Of a DNA stretch of 64,000 bases, positions 23,084 to 61,205 are shown in pieces. The stretch covers positions 20,182 to 84,181 of the forward strand of contig JAIFLV010000088.1 of assembly GCA_020048895.1 (NCBI GenBank), read 5' to 3'. The notes beneath the pieces are model-generated. The model saw only the letters and a list, made by a program, of their open reading frames with translations, had not been told where the DNA came from and ran no database searches. Numbering within the stretch: position 1 is the stretch's first letter; each line of letters starts with the position of its first letter. The position numbers and the translations under genes were made by a program. Source of the DNA: Rhodoferax sp. Lineage in GTDB: Bacteria > Pseudomonadota > Gammaproteobacteria > Burkholderiales > Burkholderiaceae_C.

Positions 23084-24373
23084 ATGAAAAAGACACTGGT
23101 TGCGGTGGCCTCGCTGGCCGTTGCGGGATGCGCTATGGCGCAGGTGAGCGTGAACGGCACCTTTAGTTTTGGCTACAAGGCCACCACCAAGGGCAATGCC
23201 GCAGGAACCCAATCCAGTGGCCTGGGGGTAGACCAATCTGAAATACGGTTGAGTGCCAAGGAAGACCTGGGCAGCGGCCAAAGGCTTGAGGCAAAGTTGA
23301 GCTTCGCCGGCGCCGATCGCAGCGGGGAGTCCAGCGCGCAGCCTTTCGCCACCGGCTCCAATGGCCCGGTGACCGGGCGTGATGCCAGCCTCACCTATAC
23401 CAATATGTCTATCGGGCAGTTCAAGTTGAGCTCGGCGCAGGGTGGTGATTACTTCACCTCCGTGGCCGGACTGGGTGTCTCTGGTCAGGGCGAACCCTTG
23501 ATCGAAATGGATGGCAAACTGCACGAGCTCAAAGGTCCGGTGGATGCCATCAGCTACACGGTGCCGGTGGGTCCGGTGTATCTCAACGTCGAGCACTCTG
23601 AGAGCGGCTCGTTCCTGGGCATAGGTAAAGGCAGCACCGGTGGCACAGCACAGCGCAAGAATACCTATTCCGTGTATTACAACGGCGGTCCGCTCACGCT
23701 GTTGGGCGCATATCGCACCTATGACCGCGGTTTGGATGGCCTGTGCCCAGATGCGGCGGGGGACTGCCTTAAGCTACGGGCAACAAAGGACAATCTGTAT
23801 AACTTGCAAGCTGCATATGATTTTGGCGTGGCCAAAGTCGGTCTGGCATACCAGTTTGTAAACGCCACTGCGGGCATGCACCAGATTGACACCATGGTCA
23901 GTGTGGCAGCACCCCTGGGCCCGGTCATCGTAGCAGCGTCCTATTCCACGAGTGAAATGACGGACCCACCAGACACCTCCAAGTTTGCAAATATTGGCGC
24001 TGGCGGTGCCTGGGAAGCGACCCAGTATGCAGGCAAGACCGATGGTTATGCCTTTGGCGCAAAGTACGCCCTGAGCAAGCGCACCAGCATTCTGGCGCGC
24101 TACGCTTCCTGGACGCACAGTGGCTATTCGCGCTACGAAGCGGATGCACCCTTCAAGGCTGTGGCACTGCAAGCGTTTGGCGGCGCAGCCTACAACTATG
24201 GCGTGGCCAAGGCCACCTTCGACGCAGCACCGAGCGCTGCCGCCGGAGCTGCGTTGCAGCAAGCCGGTGGCGCCATGCAACAAGCCTGGGCAGCTGCCAA
24301 AGCCGCCTCAGCGGGCTTGACCGCCAGCAACTCTGCCAACGAGGCTGGCATCTATCTGATACACACGTTCTGA
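23084..24373 (+). CDS. Gram-negative porin, paralog of the upstream porin, with a long Ala-rich insert
   Basis: Same signal style, EDLGSG, shared DRSGESxxQPxATGSNGPVTGR, YALSKRT, ends IHTF. Confidence 0.9.
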   Translation: MKKTLVAVASLAVAGCAMAQVSVNGTFSFGYKATTKGNAAGTQSSGLGVDQSEIRLSAKEDLGSGQRLEAKLSFAGADRSGESSAQPFATGSNGPVTGRDASLTYTNMSIGQFKLSSAQGGDYFTSVAGLGVSGQGEPLIEMDGKLHELKGPVDAISYTVPVGPVYLNVEHSESGSFLGIGKGSTGGTAQRKNTYSVYYNGGPLTLLGAYRTYDRGLDGLCPDAAGDCLKLRATKDNLYNLQAAYDFGVAKVGLAYQFVNATAGMHQIDTMVSVAAPLGPVIVAASYSTSEMTDPPDTSKFANIGAGGAWEATQYAGKTDGYAFGAKYALSKRTSILARYASWTHSGYSRYEADAPFKAVALQAFGGAAYNYGVAKATFDAAPSAAAGAALQQAGGAMQQAWAAAKAASAGLTASNSANEAGIYLIHTF

Positions 24374-24409
24374 GGCATCTGAAGCCAGAGCGAATTTCAT
24401 GAAGCGATG

Positions 24410-24439
24410 GCCCCGGTGGGTGACTGCTGGGGCTTTTTT
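24410..24439 (+). terminator. Intrinsic terminator after porin 2
   Basis: GCCCCGG...CTGGGGC followed by TTTTTT. Confidence 0.7.
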
Positions 24440-24468: not shown

Positions 24469-25725
24469 ATGCCAGAACCCACACTCGCTCTTCAATCCCG
24501 CGCCTTTGCCCACATTGCCGCCTTTCACCCCGAGCTCACTGCCCTGCGCCGGGACCTGCATGCGCACCCCGAATTGGGTTTTGAAGAGGTGTACACGGCC
24601 AAGCGGGTGGTGGAGGCGCTCAAGGTTTGCGGCGTCGACGAAATTCACGAAGGCATAGGCAAAACTGGGGTGGTCGCGCTCATTCGCGGGCGTGGCGCCG
24701 CAGGGGCGGGCGCTATGGTGGGCTTGCGCGCCGACATGGATGCCCTGCCGATAACTGAGCACAACGAGTTTGCCTGGCGCTCCGCCGCCCATGGCTGCAT
24801 GCATGGTTGCGGGCACGATGGCCACACCGCCATGCTGGTGGGTGCCGCACGCTACCTGAGTGAGACCCGCAATTTCGCTGGCACCGCAGTGCTCATATTC
24901 CAGCCCGGCGAAGAGGGTTATGCCGGTGCCAAAGCCATGATGCAAGATGGTCTGTTTGAGCGTTTCCCGGTGCGCTCGGTGTTTGCCATGCACAACTGGC
25001 CGGCCATGCGTCCGGGCACGATCGGCATCAACGCGGGGCCGATGATGGCCGCGGCGGACCGCGTCAGCATCGAGATCACCGGGCGCGGCGGCCACGGCGC
25101 TCACGCCTACCAGACCGTGGACCCGGTGCTGGTGGCGGCGCATATCATCACGGCGGTGCAGAGCATCGTGTCGCGCAACGTCAAGGCGGTGGACAGCGCG
25201 GTCATCAGCCTGTGCGCCATGCAGGCCGGTGATCTTGGTGCAATGAGTGTGGTGCCCGGTTCGGCCACGCTGGTGGGCACCGTGCGCACCTTCAGCCCTG
25301 TGGTGCAGGACCTGCTGGAACGGCGTCTTCACGAGTTGTGCACTTCAGTCGCCCAGGCATTTGGTGCCACGGCCGTGGTCACTTTCGAGCGCATGTATCC
25401 GGCCACCATCAACACCGCGGTGGAGGCGCAATTTGCCGGCAATGTAGCCAGCAGTCTGGTCGGTGAAGACAATGTGGTGCGCCATCTGGAGCCGAGCATG
25501 GGTGCCGAGGACTTTTCCTTCATGCTGCAGGCCAAGCCCGGTGCCTACCTGCGCCTGGGGCAGGGCGACGCCAGCGGTAAAGGCACCTGCGGCCTGCACA
25601 ACAGCCGCTACGACTTTAACGACGATGTATTGCCCTTGGGGGCAGCGTTGCACGCCAGGCTGGTCGAGCACGCGTTGCCTTTGCCTGTGGCCCAAGGGCA
25701 AACGGGATTGGACCACCCGAGATAA
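24469..25725 (+). CDS. M20 family amidohydrolase (hippurate hydrolase-like)
   Basis: HAHPELGFEE, LRADMDALP, MHGCGHDGH, FQPGEEG, GAEDF, LHNSRYDFND. Confidence 0.95.
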   Translation: MPEPTLALQSRAFAHIAAFHPELTALRRDLHAHPELGFEEVYTAKRVVEALKVCGVDEIHEGIGKTGVVALIRGRGAAGAGAMVGLRADMDALPITEHNEFAWRSAAHGCMHGCGHDGHTAMLVGAARYLSETRNFAGTAVLIFQPGEEGYAGAKAMMQDGLFERFPVRSVFAMHNWPAMRPGTIGINAGPMMAAADRVSIEITGRGGHGAHAYQTVDPVLVAAHIITAVQSIVSRNVKAVDSAVISLCAMQAGDLGAMSVVPGSATLVGTVRTFSPVVQDLLERRLHELCTSVAQAFGATAVVTFERMYPATINTAVEAQFAGNVASSLVGEDNVVRHLEPSMGAEDFSFMLQAKPGAYLRLGQGDASGKGTCGLHNSRYDFNDDVLPLGAALHARLVEHALPLPVAQGQTGLDHPR

Positions 25726-25754
25726 CAACGCCACGAATGATGACGCAATGAGCG

Positions 25755-26822
25755 TCAGCAGATGCGTGGAAGTTGCTCTCCGCTGAGCCAGTCCACCACC
25801 CGACGTCCGCCCAAACGTGTTTGCATCTGGACGAAATGGTGTGGGTCATCGTGGACAGTGCCAATCTGACAGGCAGCTTGGCCCAAGGGGTGGGCGCGCA
25901 TGCAGGCCAAGGCCGACTCTGCGGCTTGTGCGTCACAGACCATGATCAGCTTGCCCTCATTGGCAATGTAGAGCGGATCCAGCCCCAGCAACTCACAGGC
26001 GGCCTCCACCTGTGGCAACAGTGGAATGCTGGCTTCCATCAGCATCATGCCCACACCGGACTGCCGGGCGATTTCATTCAGGGTGGTGGCCAGACCGCCG
26101 CGCGTCGGGTCACGCAACACACGCACACTGCCGGGTGGCAAGGCCGCCAGCACATCGGCCACCAAGGTGTGCAAAGCAGCCGTGTCCGAAAGAATCGCGG
26201 TCTCAAAGTCAAGCGACTCGCGCTTGGACAGCACCGCCACGCCGTGTTCACCCAGTGTGCCAGACACCAGCACCACATCGCCCGCCCGCGCCTGGTCACC
26301 ACCAATGTGGACTCCCGCAGCCACCACGCCCAGGCCGGTGGTGCTGATAAAGACACCGTCACCCTTGCCTTTTTCCACCACCTTGGTGTCGCCAGTGACG
26401 ATGGGCACGCCTGCCTCACGCGCCGCGTCCCCCATCGATTCGGCAATACGCTGCAGCTCGGCTAGCGGGTAACCTTCCTCCAGAATGAAACTTGCCGACA
26501 AGTACAGGGGGCGGGCGCCCAGCATGGCAACATCGTTGATCGTGCCGTGTACCGCCAGGCAACCCAGATCGCCGCCGGGGAAAAAAATGGGCGAAACCAC
26601 ATGCGCGTCCGTTGCCATCACCAGGCGACCGCCTTGCAGCAGCTCTGGCGGGGTGGGCAAGGTAGCCCCGTCATTGCCCTGGCGCAGGAACTCATTGTCA
26701 AACGCCTTGAGAAAGATTTCTTCAATCAACTGCGCGCTGGCGCGACCACCGGCTCCATGGTTCATGTCCACCCGCCCGTTGCGAATGTCCATCGGGCGCA
26801 CATAGGGAGGCTTGGAACTCAT
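25755..26822 (-). CDS. hypE: Hydrogenase maturation protein HypE
   Basis: HGAGG, TDAHVVSPIFFPGGDLG, GDTKVV, RDPTRGG, NEGK, C-terminal LPRIC. Confidence 0.97.
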   Translation of the reverse strand: MSSKPPYVRPMDIRNGRVDMNHGAGGRASAQLIEEIFLKAFDNEFLRQGNDGATLPTPPELLQGGRLVMATDAHVVSPIFFPGGDLGCLAVHGTINDVAMLGARPLYLSASFILEEGYPLAELQRIAESMGDAAREAGVPIVTGDTKVVEKGKGDGVFISTTGLGVVAAGVHIGGDQARAGDVVLVSGTLGEHGVAVLSKRESLDFETAILSDTAALHTLVADVLAALPPGSVRVLRDPTRGGLATTLNEIARQSGVGMMLMEASIPLLPQVEAACELLGLDPLYIANEGKLIMVCDAQAAESALACMRAHPLGQAACQIGTVHDDPHHFVQMQTRLGGRRVVDWLSGEQLPRIC

Positions 26823-27958
26823 GCCGATACCACCGCAATGTCGCGAAAACGACCATACGAATAGTGTGCTGCACAGGCGCCCTCGGAAGACACCATGCAG
26901 GAGCCCATCGGGGTCTCAGGCGTGCAGACGTTGCCGAAGAGTTTGCAGTCGGTCGGGCGCTTGACGCCGCGCAGAATAGCCCCGCAGTCACATTGCTTGT
27001 GGTCGGGCACCCGGGTGTATTGCAGATCAAAGCGCGCCTCGGCATCCCAATCAGCATAGGTCGATCGGATTTTGAGGGCGCTCAAGGGTACGTCGCCCAA
27101 ACCACGCCACTCAAAGCTGTCGCGCACCTCAAACACATCGGCCACGGCGGTTTGCGCGGCTGCATTGCCATCGCGGGTGACGGCGCGGGTGAATTCGTTT
27201 TCCACTTCAGCACGCCCCTCATTGATCTGGCGCACCAGCATCAAAATCGCCTGTATCACATCCAGCGGCTCAAAGCCAGCGATCACCACCGGTTTTTGAT
27301 AGCGCTCGGCGAAACCCTCATAAGGCCTGGAGCCAATCAGGATGCTCACATGGGCCGGGCCGACAAAACCATCGAGCGGAACCGTGTGCCAGTCTTTCAC
27401 CTCGGGCGATTCCAGAATATGGGTGATCGCCGCCGGCGTCAACACATGGCAGGACAAGACGCTGAAGTTCTTGAGCTGTTCCCGCCTGGCCGCTTGCAGT
27501 GCCAAGGCGGTGGGTGGTGTGGTGGTCTCAAACCCGATGGCGAAAAACACCACTTCGCGCTGCGGGTTGTCGCGGGCGATCTTCAGGGCATCGGTGACCG
27601 AGTACACCATGCGAATATCCGCACCGCGCGCTTTGGCCTTCATCATCGACAAGTCGCCCGAGGCTGGCACCCGCATCGTGTCGGCGTAGGTGGTTACGAT
27701 CGCGCCTTGCTGCATGGCCAGTCCAATGGCCTGGTCGATACGGCCAATCGGCAGCACACACACCGGGCATCCCGGGCCATGAATCATGCGTACATTGGCG
27801 GGTAAGAGGTCGGCTACGCCGTAACGCGAAATAGCATGAGTATGGCCACCACAAAATTCCATGAAGTTGTAGTTGCGACTGGGGTCGGCCTCGGCCAGGA
27901 TGCGCTGGGCAATTTTCTGACCCAAAGCTCCATCGCGGTATTCGTCGATGTACTTCAT
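26819..27958 (-). CDS. hypD: Hydrogenase maturation protein HypD
   Basis: MEFCGGHTH, GPGCPVC, GFETT, PMGSCMVSSEGAC. Confidence 0.97.
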   Translation of the reverse strand: MKYIDEYRDGALGQKIAQRILAEADPSRNYNFMEFCGGHTHAISRYGVADLLPANVRMIHGPGCPVCVLPIGRIDQAIGLAMQQGAIVTTYADTMRVPASGDLSMMKAKARGADIRMVYSVTDALKIARDNPQREVVFFAIGFETTTPPTALALQAARREQLKNFSVLSCHVLTPAAITHILESPEVKDWHTVPLDGFVGPAHVSILIGSRPYEGFAERYQKPVVIAGFEPLDVIQAILMLVRQINEGRAEVENEFTRAVTRDGNAAAQTAVADVFEVRDSFEWRGLGDVPLSALKIRSTYADWDAEARFDLQYTRVPDHKQCDCGAILRGVKRPTDCKLFGNVCTPETPMGSCMVSSEGACAAHYSYGRFRDIAVVSA

Positions 27959-28203
27959 GCGCCCACCTTCGGCATCGATTCATTGCGCTGGCTGATTTCC
28001 AGTTCGGCAAACAGCGCCAGGGTGTGCGCGGCTTCGTCTGGATCCATCAGCCCAATGGCATGACCGACATGCACAATGACGTAATCATCGACCCGGGCCT
28101 CCGGCACCAATTCGATCGAGATGGCCTTGCGCACCCCTCCCAAATCGACCGTGGCTTCGAGTCCATGGACCGCAACAACGCGCGCGGGAAGAGCTAGGCA
28201 CAT
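27955..28203 (-). CDS. hypC: Hydrogenase maturation chaperone HypC
   Basis: MCLALPARV N-terminus, YVIVHVGHAI; AAGGAG SD. Confidence 0.96.
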   Translation of the reverse strand: MCLALPARVVAVHGLEATVDLGGVRKAISIELVPEARVDDYVIVHVGHAIGLMDPDEAAHTLALFAELEISQRNESMPKVGA

Positions 28204-28378
28204 ACACGACTCCTTGACAAACTAAGCTTAAACGCTGGACGGCAACCTCTGCATGCAGTGCAGGTCTTTTTGAGCGTTTCAATGGTAGCGCACAGCAAGG
28301 TAGTTGTGCCCGAGGCAGGGTTTGACACCAAGTTGCCAGCACTTATGCCGTGGGGCCAATACAAATCTCCAGAAACGC

Positions 28379-28403
28379 AAAAGCCCCACGAAGATCGTAG
28401 GGC
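28379..28403 (-). terminator. Intrinsic terminator (minus strand)
   Basis: GCCCUACG-AUCUU-CGUGGGGC-UUUU. Confidence 0.8.
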
Positions 28404-28570
28404 CTGCACGTTTGCCGCATCGCTGCAGCCAATGTCGTTACTAGCCAGTAACGTAGACCGGCCAAGGTAGCGCCGGTTGTGGGGTGAGGAGGACTTGGAT
28501 CGGATCTATATGTACCACCTTTCACAGGAGCTCTTGCTGGTGTCGCCGACATCAGTCAAGGATTCCTTGT
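28379..28570 (-). ncRNA. Candidate ~190-nt small RNA
   Basis: Bounded by a sigma70-like promoter and an intrinsic terminator; internal hairpins; CCUCCUCA anti-SD tract. No Rfam search was possible. Confidence 0.55.
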
Positions 28571-28576
28571 AAATCC

Positions 28577-28604
28577 ACTATAGGCAATGGGCGGCAAATT
28601 GCAA
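28577..28604 (-). promoter_or_regulatory. Sigma70-like promoter for the candidate sRNA
   Basis: TTGCAA (28604-28599) -N16- TATAGT (28582-28577). Confidence 0.6.
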
Positions 28605-28643
28605 GGGGAATTTTCCACAATACCGATCTGTCAAACAGTCTAA

Positions 28644-29492
28644 CTACGCATAGCGTTTGCTACGCAAGTTGTTCTTCATTTCGCGCAGCAGGGGTTGCAA
28701 GGTGGTGCCGCCAATGCGTAAGGCCACACCGGTTGCCAGGATGTCGATGATCATGAGGTGCAACAGGCGCGATACCATCGGGCTGTACTTGTCAAAGCCT
28801 TCCGGGTGATCCGCGCTCAGGTGGATGTTGCCTGCGCTCGCCAAGGGCGAACCGCTGGCGGTAATCACGATCGTGGTAGCGCCATTCTTGCGAGCAATAT
28901 CACAGGCATCCATCAAGTCTCGCGTGCGGCCGGAGTTGCTGATGACCACCAGGCAATCGCCAGGCCCCAGAAGTGACGCGCTCATCACCTGCATGTGGCC
29001 ATCGCTGTAGGCATTGGTGTTGATGCCCAGGCGGAAAAATTTGTGCTGGGCATCCTGTGCCACGATGCCCGAGTTGCCAGCCCCCATGAACTGGATCTGG
29101 TGCTTATTCGTGTAGGCGTTCATGAGTGCCGTAACCGCCCGGTCCATGGTGACTGCGGAGGCCTCATTGCGGTACTTGAGGAATGAGGCCACGGTGTTGT
29201 CAATCACCTTCACCATCACATCGCCGACCTTGTCGTCCGCATCGACACTGCGATGAATGAAGGGCACGCCTTCATTTACGGTACCGGCGAGTTTGCGCTT
29301 GAAGTCTGACAAACCGTCGTAGCCCACACTGCGACAGAACCGCACCACAGTGGGTTTGCTCACGTGCGACCGGTCGGCCAACTCACTCACCGGCAGGCTG
29401 GCAAATGCCCGCGGGTCCGCCAGACACAATTTGCCCACCCGCTGTTCAGCAGGTGCAAGCGAAGGCAAAGAAGCTTTGATTCTCTCTAACAT
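28644..29492 (-). CDS. hexR: RpiR-family regulator HexR
   Basis: MLERIKASLPSL, SKPTVVRFCRSVGYDG HTH, SIS domain (ISNSGRT); directly downstream of zwf. Confidence 0.93.
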   Translation of the reverse strand: MLERIKASLPSLAPAEQRVGKLCLADPRAFASLPVSELADRSHVSKPTVVRFCRSVGYDGLSDFKRKLAGTVNEGVPFIHRSVDADDKVGDVMVKVIDNTVASFLKYRNEASAVTMDRAVTALMNAYTNKHQIQFMGAGNSGIVAQDAQHKFFRLGINTNAYSDGHMQVMSASLLGPGDCLVVISNSGRTRDLMDACDIARKNGATTIVITASGSPLASAGNIHLSADHPEGFDKYSPMVSRLLHLMIIDILATGVALRIGGTTLQPLLREMKNNLRSKRYA

Positions 29493-59267: not shown

Positions 59268-61205
59268 TTATCGCTCACACGTGAGGTTTCGATCATGGGC
59301 CATCTTTCGGTACAAAGTCTGGCGGCTGACTCCCAGAATGCGCGCGGCATGGGAGACATTTCCCTTGGCGGACTCCAGCGCCTGTTGCATGGCGGTCTTG
59401 GCAAGGTCTTCAAGATTGGAGGAAGTTCGCAACGTAGGCACTGCCACCGTCGGCGGCGTGTGCGCCACCAGGTCTTCCACAACGTCATCCGCGAGGTGAC
59501 TCCAACCAATGCAATCTTCATGCGGATCGAGCATGGCGCTGGCGGTTCGCAAAACGCTGGCGAGTTGCCGCAAGTTACCCGGCCATCCGTGCTTCTCCAT
59601 TTTTTCCAGTACTTCCGTACCAAGGCGAACATTGCGATCAGGGTTCAGTCCTGCCAGCAATCTGTGAGTGAGCGCCTGAAAATCTGTTCGCTCGCGCAAT
59701 GGGGGGAGTTGAATGGTGAGACCGTTGATTCGGTAGTACAGGTCGTTGCGAAACCGGCCCTTGTCCGCCTCTTCGCGTAGTTTGGAATGGGTAGCACAGA
59801 CAAGAGCGAAGTCCACTTCCATCGAGCGCCCGCCACCGAGTGGAGTCACACAGCGCTCCTGCAGCACCCGCAGCAACCGGGTTTGCATGTTCAGTGGCAT
59901 GTCCCCGATCTCATCCAGAAACAGCGTGCCGCCGTTTGCCTCACGCAGGCGACCCAGGCTTCCTTCCTTTTTTGCCCCGGTAAACGCCCCGGGTGCATAG
60001 CCAAACAGCTCGGACTCGATCAGACTTTCGGGAATGGCTGCGCAGTTGATGGCAACAAACGGACCTGATCGGCGCGCGCTGGTGTCATGCATGGCACGGG
60101 CGAAGTATTCCTTTCCCACACCCGACTCTCCCTGAATGAGTACCGGTATCGGCTTGTTCAGCACGCGGCGCGCCTTGTCGGCCGCGTTGCGCCACCGCAC
60201 ATCGCCTGTATCCAGGCAGGAAAGCGCGTCGACGGGTGAACGATCGTGCTTTGCGGCTTGATGGATTCCATTTGTCGACCGCGCCTCTGGGGTATGTACA
60301 ACGGCAAACAGTGTGTGGGCGTTACGCGTTCGGATTTGCATCGGTAAACCGGGGTTGCGCCTGCAACGCGACAGCAACTCGTCCATCCGAAGGTCCACAG
60401 CGCGCTCGAGCGGCGTAACGCCTAAATTGGAACGATTGAGCTGTAGGCAGGTCATTGCAGCCCGGTTGGCACCGACAATCCAACCATCTTCAGAGACTGA
60501 AACGATGCCTTCGGCCACGGTACCAATGCCTTCAGGCTGTGCGTGCAGATGAATTCGGATTCCACGTGAGCCTTGAGCGACCATCAAGCGGTTCTCAATC
60601 ATCCGTGCAGCCGTGCTGACCAAGCCTAACGTATGGGGATGCCCGTTGTGCTGGTCTCCCGAGATGTCCAGGATGCCCATCAGCCCCCCCTTGGCAGACA
60701 TGATGGGTGAAGCGGCACAGGTAAGAAAGCTGTTGCGTTCCAAGAAGTGCTCCTGGCCATGGACTTCCACCCCCGTGCCTTCGGCGAGCGCGGTGCCGAT
60801 CGCATTGGTCCCGCGTTGCGACTCGTGCCACGATGCTCCTGACGCTAAAGCAACCCGCTGCGCTTTATCAAGAAAGACAGCGTCACCCAGGGTGTGCATC
60901 AAGGTGCCCCGGTTGTCCGCAAGGACCACGACATTCTGGTTATGGCGCACCTGTTCAAACAAGTACTCCATCACCGGCCGGGAGTGGGCCAGCAGTTCGT
61001 GGTTTTGCATCAAGATCTGGCGCAATTCATTTCCGCTGCTGTGATCTGGCATCTGCAAGCGACCATCTGGTAGCAGGCCCGCGGCCATGCTGCGACTCCA
61101 GGAGCGTGCGATGCGCCCATCGAGCCCACTTTCGGGTACAGATCCAAATTCCATGAGATGCTCGCGAGCATGATGGACGGCCAAAGCGTGTTGGGGGGTG
61201 TGCAC
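59268..61205 (-). CDS. acoR: Sigma54-dependent enhancer-binding protein, AcoR-like (GAF-AAA+-Fis HTH)
   Basis: RGTNAIGTAL GAF, GESGVGKE, ESELFGYAPGAFTGA, LFLDEIGD, WPGNLRQL, HTH; GTG start after AGGAG. Confidence 0.9.
   Translation of the reverse strand: MHTPQHALAVHHAREHLMEFGSVPESGLDGRIARSWSRSMAAGLLPDGRLQMPDHSSGNELRQILMQNHELLAHSRPVMEYLFEQVRHNQNVVVLADNRGTLMHTLGDAVFLDKAQRVALASGASWHESQRGTNAIGTALAEGTGVEVHGQEHFLERNSFLTCAASPIMSAKGGLMGILDISGDQHNGHPHTLGLVSTAARMIENRLMVAQGSRGIRIHLHAQPEGIGTVAEGIVSVSEDGWIVGANRAAMTCLQLNRSNLGVTPLERAVDLRMDELLSRCRRNPGLPMQIRTRNAHTLFAVVHTPEARSTNGIHQAAKHDRSPVDALSCLDTGDVRWRNAADKARRVLNKPIPVLIQGESGVGKEYFARAMHDTSARRSGPFVAINCAAIPESLIESELFGYAPGAFTGAKKEGSLGRLREANGGTLFLDEIGDMPLNMQTRLLRVLQERCVTPLGGGRSMEVDFALVCATHSKLREEADKGRFRNDLYYRINGLTIQLPPLRERTDFQALTHRLLAGLNPDRNVRLGTEVLEKMEKHGWPGNLRQLASVLRTASAMLDPHEDCIGWSHLADDVVEDLVAHTPPTVAVPTLRTSSNLEDLAKTAMQQALESAKGNVSHAARILGVSRQTLYRKMAHDRNLTCER

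Follow-up and report, generated by a model that had tools for sequence, protein, structure and literature searches.

A candidate structured-RNA gene of about 200 nt, with predicted promoter and terminator, in the hexR-hypC gap of a Rhodoferax sp. contig

Positions 28604-28369 on the minus strand of the window (the whole stretch of Rhodoferax sp. DNA that was analysed, 64,000 nucleotides) probably form an independent gene whose product, a structured non-coding RNA of ~200 nt, most likely acts in trans by base-pairing, a reading to which we assign a probability of roughly 0.7. Descending coordinates follow the minus strand, on which the gene order is zwf, hexR (29516-28644), a 440-bp gap (28643-28204), hypC (28203-27955), hypD and hypE. 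The original prediction had placed a discrete small RNA of ~190 nt in this gap. The gap was confirmed, with 28643-28204 separating the hexR stop from the hypC start, and a check of the sequence located every motif that had been named, on the minus strand and at its given position. The gap was 100% identical in all contigs and sequencing runs that carry the window's own locus, no repeat of it was found elsewhere in the window, and no tRNA or tmRNA was found.

In scans of the window sequence alone, neither promoter-like sites (1 against 0.6 expected) nor terminator-like sites (2 against 0.9 expected) around the candidate exceeded chance level. Over 20 kb the corresponding counts were 5 against 6.3 expected and 20 against 20.0 expected. 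The terminator hairpin of the candidate was one of the two strongest across the 20 kb; the only other hairpin to match it in strength was a strong intrinsic terminator on the plus strand (24409-24434; 11 pairs, 7 of them G-C, T5 tail) that follows a porin gene ending at 24373. The candidate RNA folded with a z-score of -2.16, which 6 of 200 shuffled sequences reached. The candidate is raised above chance because its promoter hexamers, their spacing, its length, its helices and its terminator recur in four independent contigs.

These homologues were found by way of a 69-aa ORF (28552-28343) that is itself not a gene. When the ORF was compared by phmmer with 1.84 billion representative proteins, six credible matches were obtained (E 2.5e-13 to 2e-4). 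All six (P0241-P0245 and P0247) match only ORF residues 9-63, corresponding to window positions 28528-28364, and their ends are unrelated. A common core with unrelated ends is what one expects when ORFs are called spuriously over a non-coding element that is conserved. The matches were called on unrelated metagenome contigs, and the one nearest to the window copy, P0245, lies on an 18-kb ENA contig. The DNA of three of the six matches, on four contigs (L182/L183, L184 and L185), was aligned with the window to give four distinct sequences, among which frame-preserving copies are favoured because the homologues were reached via an ORF-based search. The homologue DNA aligned from about -60 to +202 and contained a 197-202-nt block that terminates with GGGGCUUUUGCGUUUCUGG, which is invariant. 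Variable columns were distributed over the three codon positions as 24/52, 18/51 and 24/50, with no third-position excess; ORF starts and stops differed between homologues, and the frame runs through the terminator. The 69-aa ORF had no Pfam match and no match in a word-indexed protein search, and no conserved ORF was present on the opposite strand in the homologues. Since codon periodicity and a common start or stop are both missing, the element is non-coding. These results indicated that it is a predicted non-coding RNA gene and that the 69-aa ORF is, on this evidence, not a gene.

Gene neighbours and their orientations differ between the homologue contigs. The neighbours include a UDP-glucose dehydrogenase, a PD40 repeat protein (below the Pfam cut-off) and a protein without a Pfam match. 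Directly downstream of the element lies a hypB relic in the window; a PD40 gene lies about 350 nt off in L183, and nothing was called downstream in L184 and L185. The homologue contigs have GC contents of 54-56%, compared to 60% for the window. Such unrelated contexts favour a trans-acting RNA over a leader or riboswitch. The original prediction had proposed a trans-acting small RNA near central-carbon genes; the varied contexts speak for the trans-acting part, whereas the central-carbon link was not sustained. A covariance model of the family, R1, gave every copy a score of 182-218 bits, as it must by construction. With this model the window had a single copy, and 184 other loci (metagenome hyp loci and Comamonadaceae hexR loci totalling ~1.3 Mb) were without a match. 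Six pattern matches in viral contigs were all attributable to chance, and phage and plasmid collections contained no match to the element.

The candidate appears to have its own sigma-70-type promoter. Scan matches to a -35 box, TTGCAA (28604-28599), and a -10 box, TATAGT (28582-28577), are separated by 16 nt. The heptamer CTTGCAA was invariant in 5/5 aligned sequences and TATAGT in all aligned homologues, and the spacer was 16 nt in 5/5 aligned sequences even though its sequence varies. The proposed TTGCAA-N16-TATAGT promoter was therefore identical in all homologues. The conserved boxes predict a start at A28570, 7 nt past the -10 box, with a purine at the equivalent position in the homologues, which agrees with the start near 28570 put forward in the original prediction. 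The upstream promoter region (28633-28608) contains an A-rich UP-like tract, GGAAAATT, at 28615-28608, and a AGATCGGTA-like element. A-rich tracts lie 5' of the -35 box in the window, L182/L183 and L184, and four columns at 28633-28624 are invariant in an alignment of only four distinct sequences. With that number of sequences, conservation of the upstream features (the UP-like tract and the AGATCGGTA-like element) is suggestive only. The AGATCGGTA-like element, weakly conserved at about 28630-28622, is also seen in L182-L185 and lies ~55-65 nt before the start predicted for the RNA; a regulator might bind there. The predicted RNA spans 28570-28369, or ~195-202 nt as a homology block with lengths of 197-202 nt in the four contigs. 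Its 3' end is placed within UUUUGCGUUUCUGG (28382-28369), both RNA ends having been deduced from sequence. The discrete small RNA gene of the original prediction thus re-emerges with a predicted length of ~195-200 nt, and its promoter, helices and terminator are conserved in the homologues.

The predicted RNA would fold into a series of hairpins. P1, a 5' composite hairpin (28567-28526), has 13 pairs, 6 of which are changed on both sides; its sequence diverges strongly among homologues and its pairing is retained. P2 (ACCGGC...GCCGGU, 28477-28457) has 5 pairs and is 100% paired, its loop length differs by 0, -3 and -6 nt among homologues, and the next inward pair is C-G in the window versus U-A in L185. 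P3 (CGUUAC...GUAACG, 28453-28436; 7 pairs, 100% paired) shows one compensatory U-A to G-C change and two A-U/U-A to G-U changes, and P4 (GCUGCA...UGCGGC, 28429-28414; 6 pairs, 100% paired) shows a compensatory G-C to A-U change in two sequences. The ACCGGC/GCCGGT and CGTTAC/GTAACG hairpins noted earlier in the DNA correspond to P2 and P3, and both are conserved in the homologues. The intrinsic terminator (28413-28371) consists of a long stem with its core at 28405-28381, U4 at 28382-28379 and the invariant tail CUUUUGCGUUUCUGG. The stem core has 11 pairs and a predicted energy of -16.5 kcal/mol, or -20.2 with an A/U-rich extension; across homologues the terminator has 16 pairs, is 92% paired, includes a compensatory change and keeps an invariant tail. 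The predicted terminator of a GC stem with U4 is accordingly preserved in the homologues.

RNAalifold, applied to the four sequences, predicted 59 pairs, and compensatory changes were present in 9 of these. When the fold was reduced to the 47 pairs of five helices (P1-P4 and the terminator), 94% of the cells were paired, compared to 32-45% in slid controls, in which helix partners were shifted by 1-3 columns. Double-sided changes were seen in 9 pairs versus 0-2 in the slid controls, and 1 of 500 shuffles reached 9. The structure was tested on the same four distinct sequences from which it was derived, and the covariation statistics are thin because there are only four such DNA sequences. Support by covariation for a conserved secondary structure is consequently judged to be moderate. 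Several conserved G-U pairs tie the structure specifically to the minus strand.

Between P1 and P2 lies the most strongly conserved part of the family. The invariant core GAAAGGUGGUACAUAUAGA (28523-28505), with the consensus GAAAGGnGGnACnUAUAGA, is made up of invariant alignment columns and is also retained as K-G-G-T/L-Y-R in 6/6 translated homologues; no segment other than GAAAGGnGGnACnUAUAGA is unchanged across all seven homologues. The core is purine-rich and Shine-Dalgarno-like (GAAAGGnGG...UAUAGA). A segment predicted to be single-stranded, UACAUAUAGAUCCGAUCCAAGU (28513-28492), had a mean unpaired probability of 0.68-0.80 over columns 61-80 in 4/4 sequences, and this exposed segment is flanked by the family-wide GAAAGGnGGnACnUAUAGA. 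The window sequence also contains the C-rich, anti-Shine-Dalgarno-like tract UCCUCCUCACCCC (TCCTCCTCACCCC) at 28493-28481. This tract was retained as CCUCCUCAC in the window, L182 and L184; L185 has CGAACUCCAUCCC instead, and the tract is also replaced in P0244 and P0247, as judged from translated frames. It is predicted to be weakly paired with GGUGG (28519-28515) in three of the four sequences, and the resulting GGUGG/CCUCC helix shows no covariation and is broken in L185. An anti-Shine-Dalgarno tract had been a main element of the original prediction. The tract is present where it was proposed, but it is absent from distant homologues; a central role for it is not supported, and we hold a specific anti-Shine-Dalgarno mechanism with low confidence.

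Directly 3' of the RNA gene lies a 116-nt relic of hypB (28354-28239), which the original prediction did not include. The relic covers codons ~71-108 and reads HGISAGNLVSNPASGTTTLLCATIETLKK; its P-loop has changed from GSGKT to ASGTT, with loss of the lysine. It was recovered with E 6e-11 by hmmsearch and E 7e-17 by nhmmer, and it is 75% identical in nucleotide sequence to codons 71-108 of the intact hypB of L173, a locus whose HypD is 93% identical. Compared with the HypB nickel-insertion GTPase, ~38 codons including the P-loop align and the N- and C-terminal parts of a protein of ~300 aa are gone. The alignment with L173 picks up again 20 nt ahead of the hypC ATG, which indicates that ~700 bp of hypB were deleted. 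We conclude that 28354-28239 is, by these alignments, a pseudogene fragment of hypB that is separate from the RNA. Upstream of 28354, no similarity to hypB or hypA was found by HMM, tblastn, nhmmer, blastn or tblastx. Global alignment of the RNA region gave z-scores of 2.8 against L173, 0.6 against L164 and 0.1 against L175, and a collinear resemblance of the peptide SDPSPP-HPTTG to the HypB N-terminus was weak (E 0.21). Descent of the RNA region from hypB (its 5' portion, in decay) or from the hypA 3' end was considered and set aside as unproven, all similarity searches being negative. With no hyp trace upstream of 28354, the RNA region is not demonstrably hyp debris. In addition, 80 metagenome hypD loci and L161-L164 and L173-L176 share no RNA element upstream of hypC; what they have in common with the window there is limited to the P-loop fragment of hypB and the 14-20 nt that immediately precede hypC. 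A weak sigma-54-like TGGCAA-N5-TGTC inside the relic, noticed by eye, matches 2/4 at the -12 element and was dismissed.

The hypC, hypD and hypE genes (28203-25755) are intact and lie within the same inserted segment as the RNA gene. From 14-20 nt before the hypC ATG onward they are 84-86% identical in nucleotide sequence to L161, L162 and L173, and dN/dS values of 0.03-0.15 (versus L161 and L173) indicate strong purifying selection. The 64-kb window lacks hydrogenase structural genes as well as hypA, hypB and hypF. A sigma-54 activator 41% identical to HoxA is encoded at 59298-60188. The hyp cluster is eroding differently across the clade (L161, L162, L163, L173 and L175; HypD 87-94% identical). 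In L161, L162 and L163, hypA, hypB and the hypF-like gene were lost in other ways; a HupK-like gene abuts hypC in L161 and apparently in L162, and abuts hypD in L163, where no hypC was called. L173 is without a hypF-like gene, and the calls for the hupK-like and hypF-like genes and for hoxA are fragmented in L175.

The position of the RNA gene next to hexR appears to be recent. By its HexR the window falls within the Comamonadaceae, near Rhodoferax. Among the 80 closest species (HexR 80-89% identical), neither blastn nor nhmmer matched the gap to sequence following hexR, and hypC and hypD were likewise absent from that place. In 14 of these 80 species hexR lies directly before a convergent M20 peptidase gene. 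The closest relative found, with a HexR 97% identical, has hexR facing M20 across a 132-nt spacer, and the RNA gene is absent there. When these 97%-HexR relatives are aligned with the window, the match breaks off at the stop codon of hexR (28648-28643) and is regained only at 25694, within the 3' part of the M20 gene. Since hexR faces M20 in these relatives, the 2.9-kb segment 28642-25695, comprising the RNA gene, the hypB relic and hypCDE, is by this comparison a lineage-specific insertion between hexR and the M20 peptidase gene. No direct or inverted repeats flank the insertion, no mobility genes flank 25695-28642, and no integrase or transposase lies next to any copy of the RNA gene. At the M20 side, the closest relatives also have a different sequence for the final ~30 nt of the gene (25695-25725). 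The conservation downstream of hexR that the original prediction had named as a check was absent from the 80 closest species and the 97%-HexR relatives alike. Because the hexR-hypC adjacency is a recent insertion with orphan hypCDE, no connection between the RNA and central-carbon genes should be assumed, and the one suggested earlier is an accident of that insertion.

Other sequences occupy the hexR-M20 spacer in relatives. One 97%-HexR relative, a sister population, carries a different insert of two small genes (L179:1411-2183), the first of which is a weak match to NTP_transf_2 (nucleotidyltransferase); the presence of a different insert suggests that the spacer is an insertion hot spot. 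In the closest relatives the ancestral spacer (L180:1029-1162 and L178:2255-2388) includes a long inverted repeat, which reads GAGACATGTCGGCAGAGCG ... CGCTCTACCGACATGTCTC in L180 and may be a bidirectional terminator or a REP-like element.

A working model can be proposed for the RNA gene. The sigma-70-type promoter (CTTGCAA, 16 nt, TATAGT) would start transcription near A28570, and the transcript would fold into P1, a largely single-stranded segment with GAAAGGnGGnACnUAUAGA, P2-P4, and a long terminator with a U-rich tail. In the lineage of the window, the single-stranded segment would also carry the C-rich CCUCCUCACCCC tract. The exposed conserved segment may base-pair with mRNAs, perhaps within their ribosome-binding sites and perhaps assisted by Hfq or another chaperone. 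A rough scan for duplexes with 53 translation-initiation regions of the window did not exceed shuffled controls, with a best value of -31.0 kcal/mol compared to a shuffled best of -34.1 +/- 3.1. Read-through of the terminator from the RNA promoter may also feed hypCDE, as this promoter is the only sigma-70-like site upstream of these genes and might be their only nearby source of transcription.

The main rival to a base-pairing RNA, and in our view an unlikely one, is an RNA that binds a protein or the ribosome, in which the core would titrate a protein or the 16S rRNA 3' end and the C-rich strand would serve as an internal mask. Such a role is consistent with the invariance of GAAAGGnGGnACnUAUAGA alone in the seven homologues while the C-rich tract varies, with the predicted pairing of core and tract in three of the four sequences, and with the lack of signal in the target scan within the window. 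It is disfavoured by the absence of repeated protein-binding motifs, such as multiple GGA loops, and by the mask helix itself, in which covariation was not seen and pairing is lost in L185. A bolder version would have an undescribed family of ~200-nt RNAs in which a Shine-Dalgarno mimic, masked in part by a C-rich strand, acts on the 16S rRNA 3' end of the 30S subunit or on a dedicated protein instead of on single mRNAs, as a portable promoter-RNA-terminator cassette that here drives a captured hyp fragment; we regard this as improbable. Little probability is likewise given to a cis-acting promoter with a leader or attenuator that controls hypCDE rather than a free-standing small RNA. The minus strand holds no other sigma-70-like site between 28369 and the hypC start, and the terminator lies ~165 nt upstream of intact hypCDE under selection, both of which would suit cis control. 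However, hyp genes are not found downstream of the homologues, whose neighbours vary in both identity and orientation, the hyp clusters of relatives (L161, L162, L163, L164, L173, L175 and L176) are without the element, and a dead hypB fragment stands between the element and hypC.

The location of the gene in a lineage-specific insertion, its scattered contexts, the lower GC content of the homologue contigs (54-56% versus 60%) and the apparent hot spot between hexR and M20, which received another insert in L179, would all fit a module of a mobile or selfish element conserved through spreading rather than through host regulation. We consider this very improbable, as the copies are not accompanied by flanking repeats or by an adjacent integrase or transposase, the window has a single copy and the 184 other loci none, viral contigs matched at chance level, and phage and plasmid collections were without a match. 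Hardly any weight is left for chance motifs in decaying hyp or junk DNA, or for a small protein gene corresponding to the 69-aa ORF. The single-sequence statistics at chance level, the z-score of only -2.16, the adjoining hypB relic and the weak SDPSPP-HPTTG resemblance to the HypB N-terminus (E 0.21) would fit such an origin, but promoter, length, compensated helices and terminator are shared by four independent contigs, and blastn, nhmmer, tblastn and HMM searches gave no hypB or hypA similarity upstream of 28354. A small protein gene is countered by the lack of codon periodicity, the inconsistent ORF ends and the lack of a Pfam match. A stand-alone gene for a structured RNA that most likely pairs in trans therefore remains the preferred reading.

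If so, the gene adds a structured small RNA family that is absent from the curated RNA library, comes with a ready covariance model and gives clear predictions for RNA start, end and helices. It would establish a new family within the well-known class of stand-alone small RNA genes. The occurrence of homologues in differing contexts and base compositions suggests that the RNA probably has a general role, which, if so, would be open to study in any cultivable carrier. The work also points to a route to hidden RNA genes, in which the spurious ORFs called across them are traced by exhaustive protein search; this route works where DNA searches of neighbouring loci give nothing. Finally, the locus itself is clarified, as the hexR-hypC adjacency can be read as a recent insertion with orphan hypCDE and a dead hypB.

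The Rfam/Infernal scan that the original prediction had called for matched no family, in the window copy or in the homologues. With the 4227 covariance models of Rfam 15, no match reached the gathering threshold in the whole window and none was obtained at E <= 10 in 28100-28750, the betaproteobacterial toxic small RNA included; the homologues gave only noise (16-22 bits versus gathering scores of 38-71). From these searches, the predicted RNA represents a small RNA family missing from Rfam 15. The Pseudomonas rnk leader (RF01772) resembles the RNA in having hairpins followed by a terminator, and it gave weak cmscan matches to the 3' halves of L182 and L185. These were dismissed as noise (21-22 bits versus a gathering score of 55, E 2-3.3), since the window copy gave no match and no rnk lies downstream. 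Betaproteobacterial toxic small RNAs, which have reportedly been noted in Burkholderia cenocepacia and are much shorter than 200 nt, share with the RNA a betaproteobacterial host and, in the window copy, a C-rich tract complementary to Shine-Dalgarno sequences. They differ in that none matched at E <= 10 in Rfam and in that the C-rich tract is not family-wide here. The BRE repeat of Bordetella and Comamonadaceae is ~90 bp, 69% GC and tandemly repeated (PMC3110155), and by these described features, rather than by sequence comparison, it was judged unrelated and rejected as an identity for the element. The closest likeness in design is to trans-encoded Hfq-type small RNAs, which are transcribed from a sigma-70 promoter of their own and end at a Rho-independent terminator. 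The candidate differs from curated families of small RNAs in having no sequence or covariance-model similarity to them, and its purine-rich, Shine-Dalgarno-like core is unlike a typical small RNA seed. Like those RNAs, of which the ~200-nt enterobacterial GcvB is an example, it is a stand-alone intergenic gene of ~200 nt with a conserved promoter, and its genomic neighbours vary. Its predicted product, again as in generic Hfq-type small RNAs, has several hairpins, leaves a conserved segment exposed and ends in a stem-loop followed by a U-rich tail.
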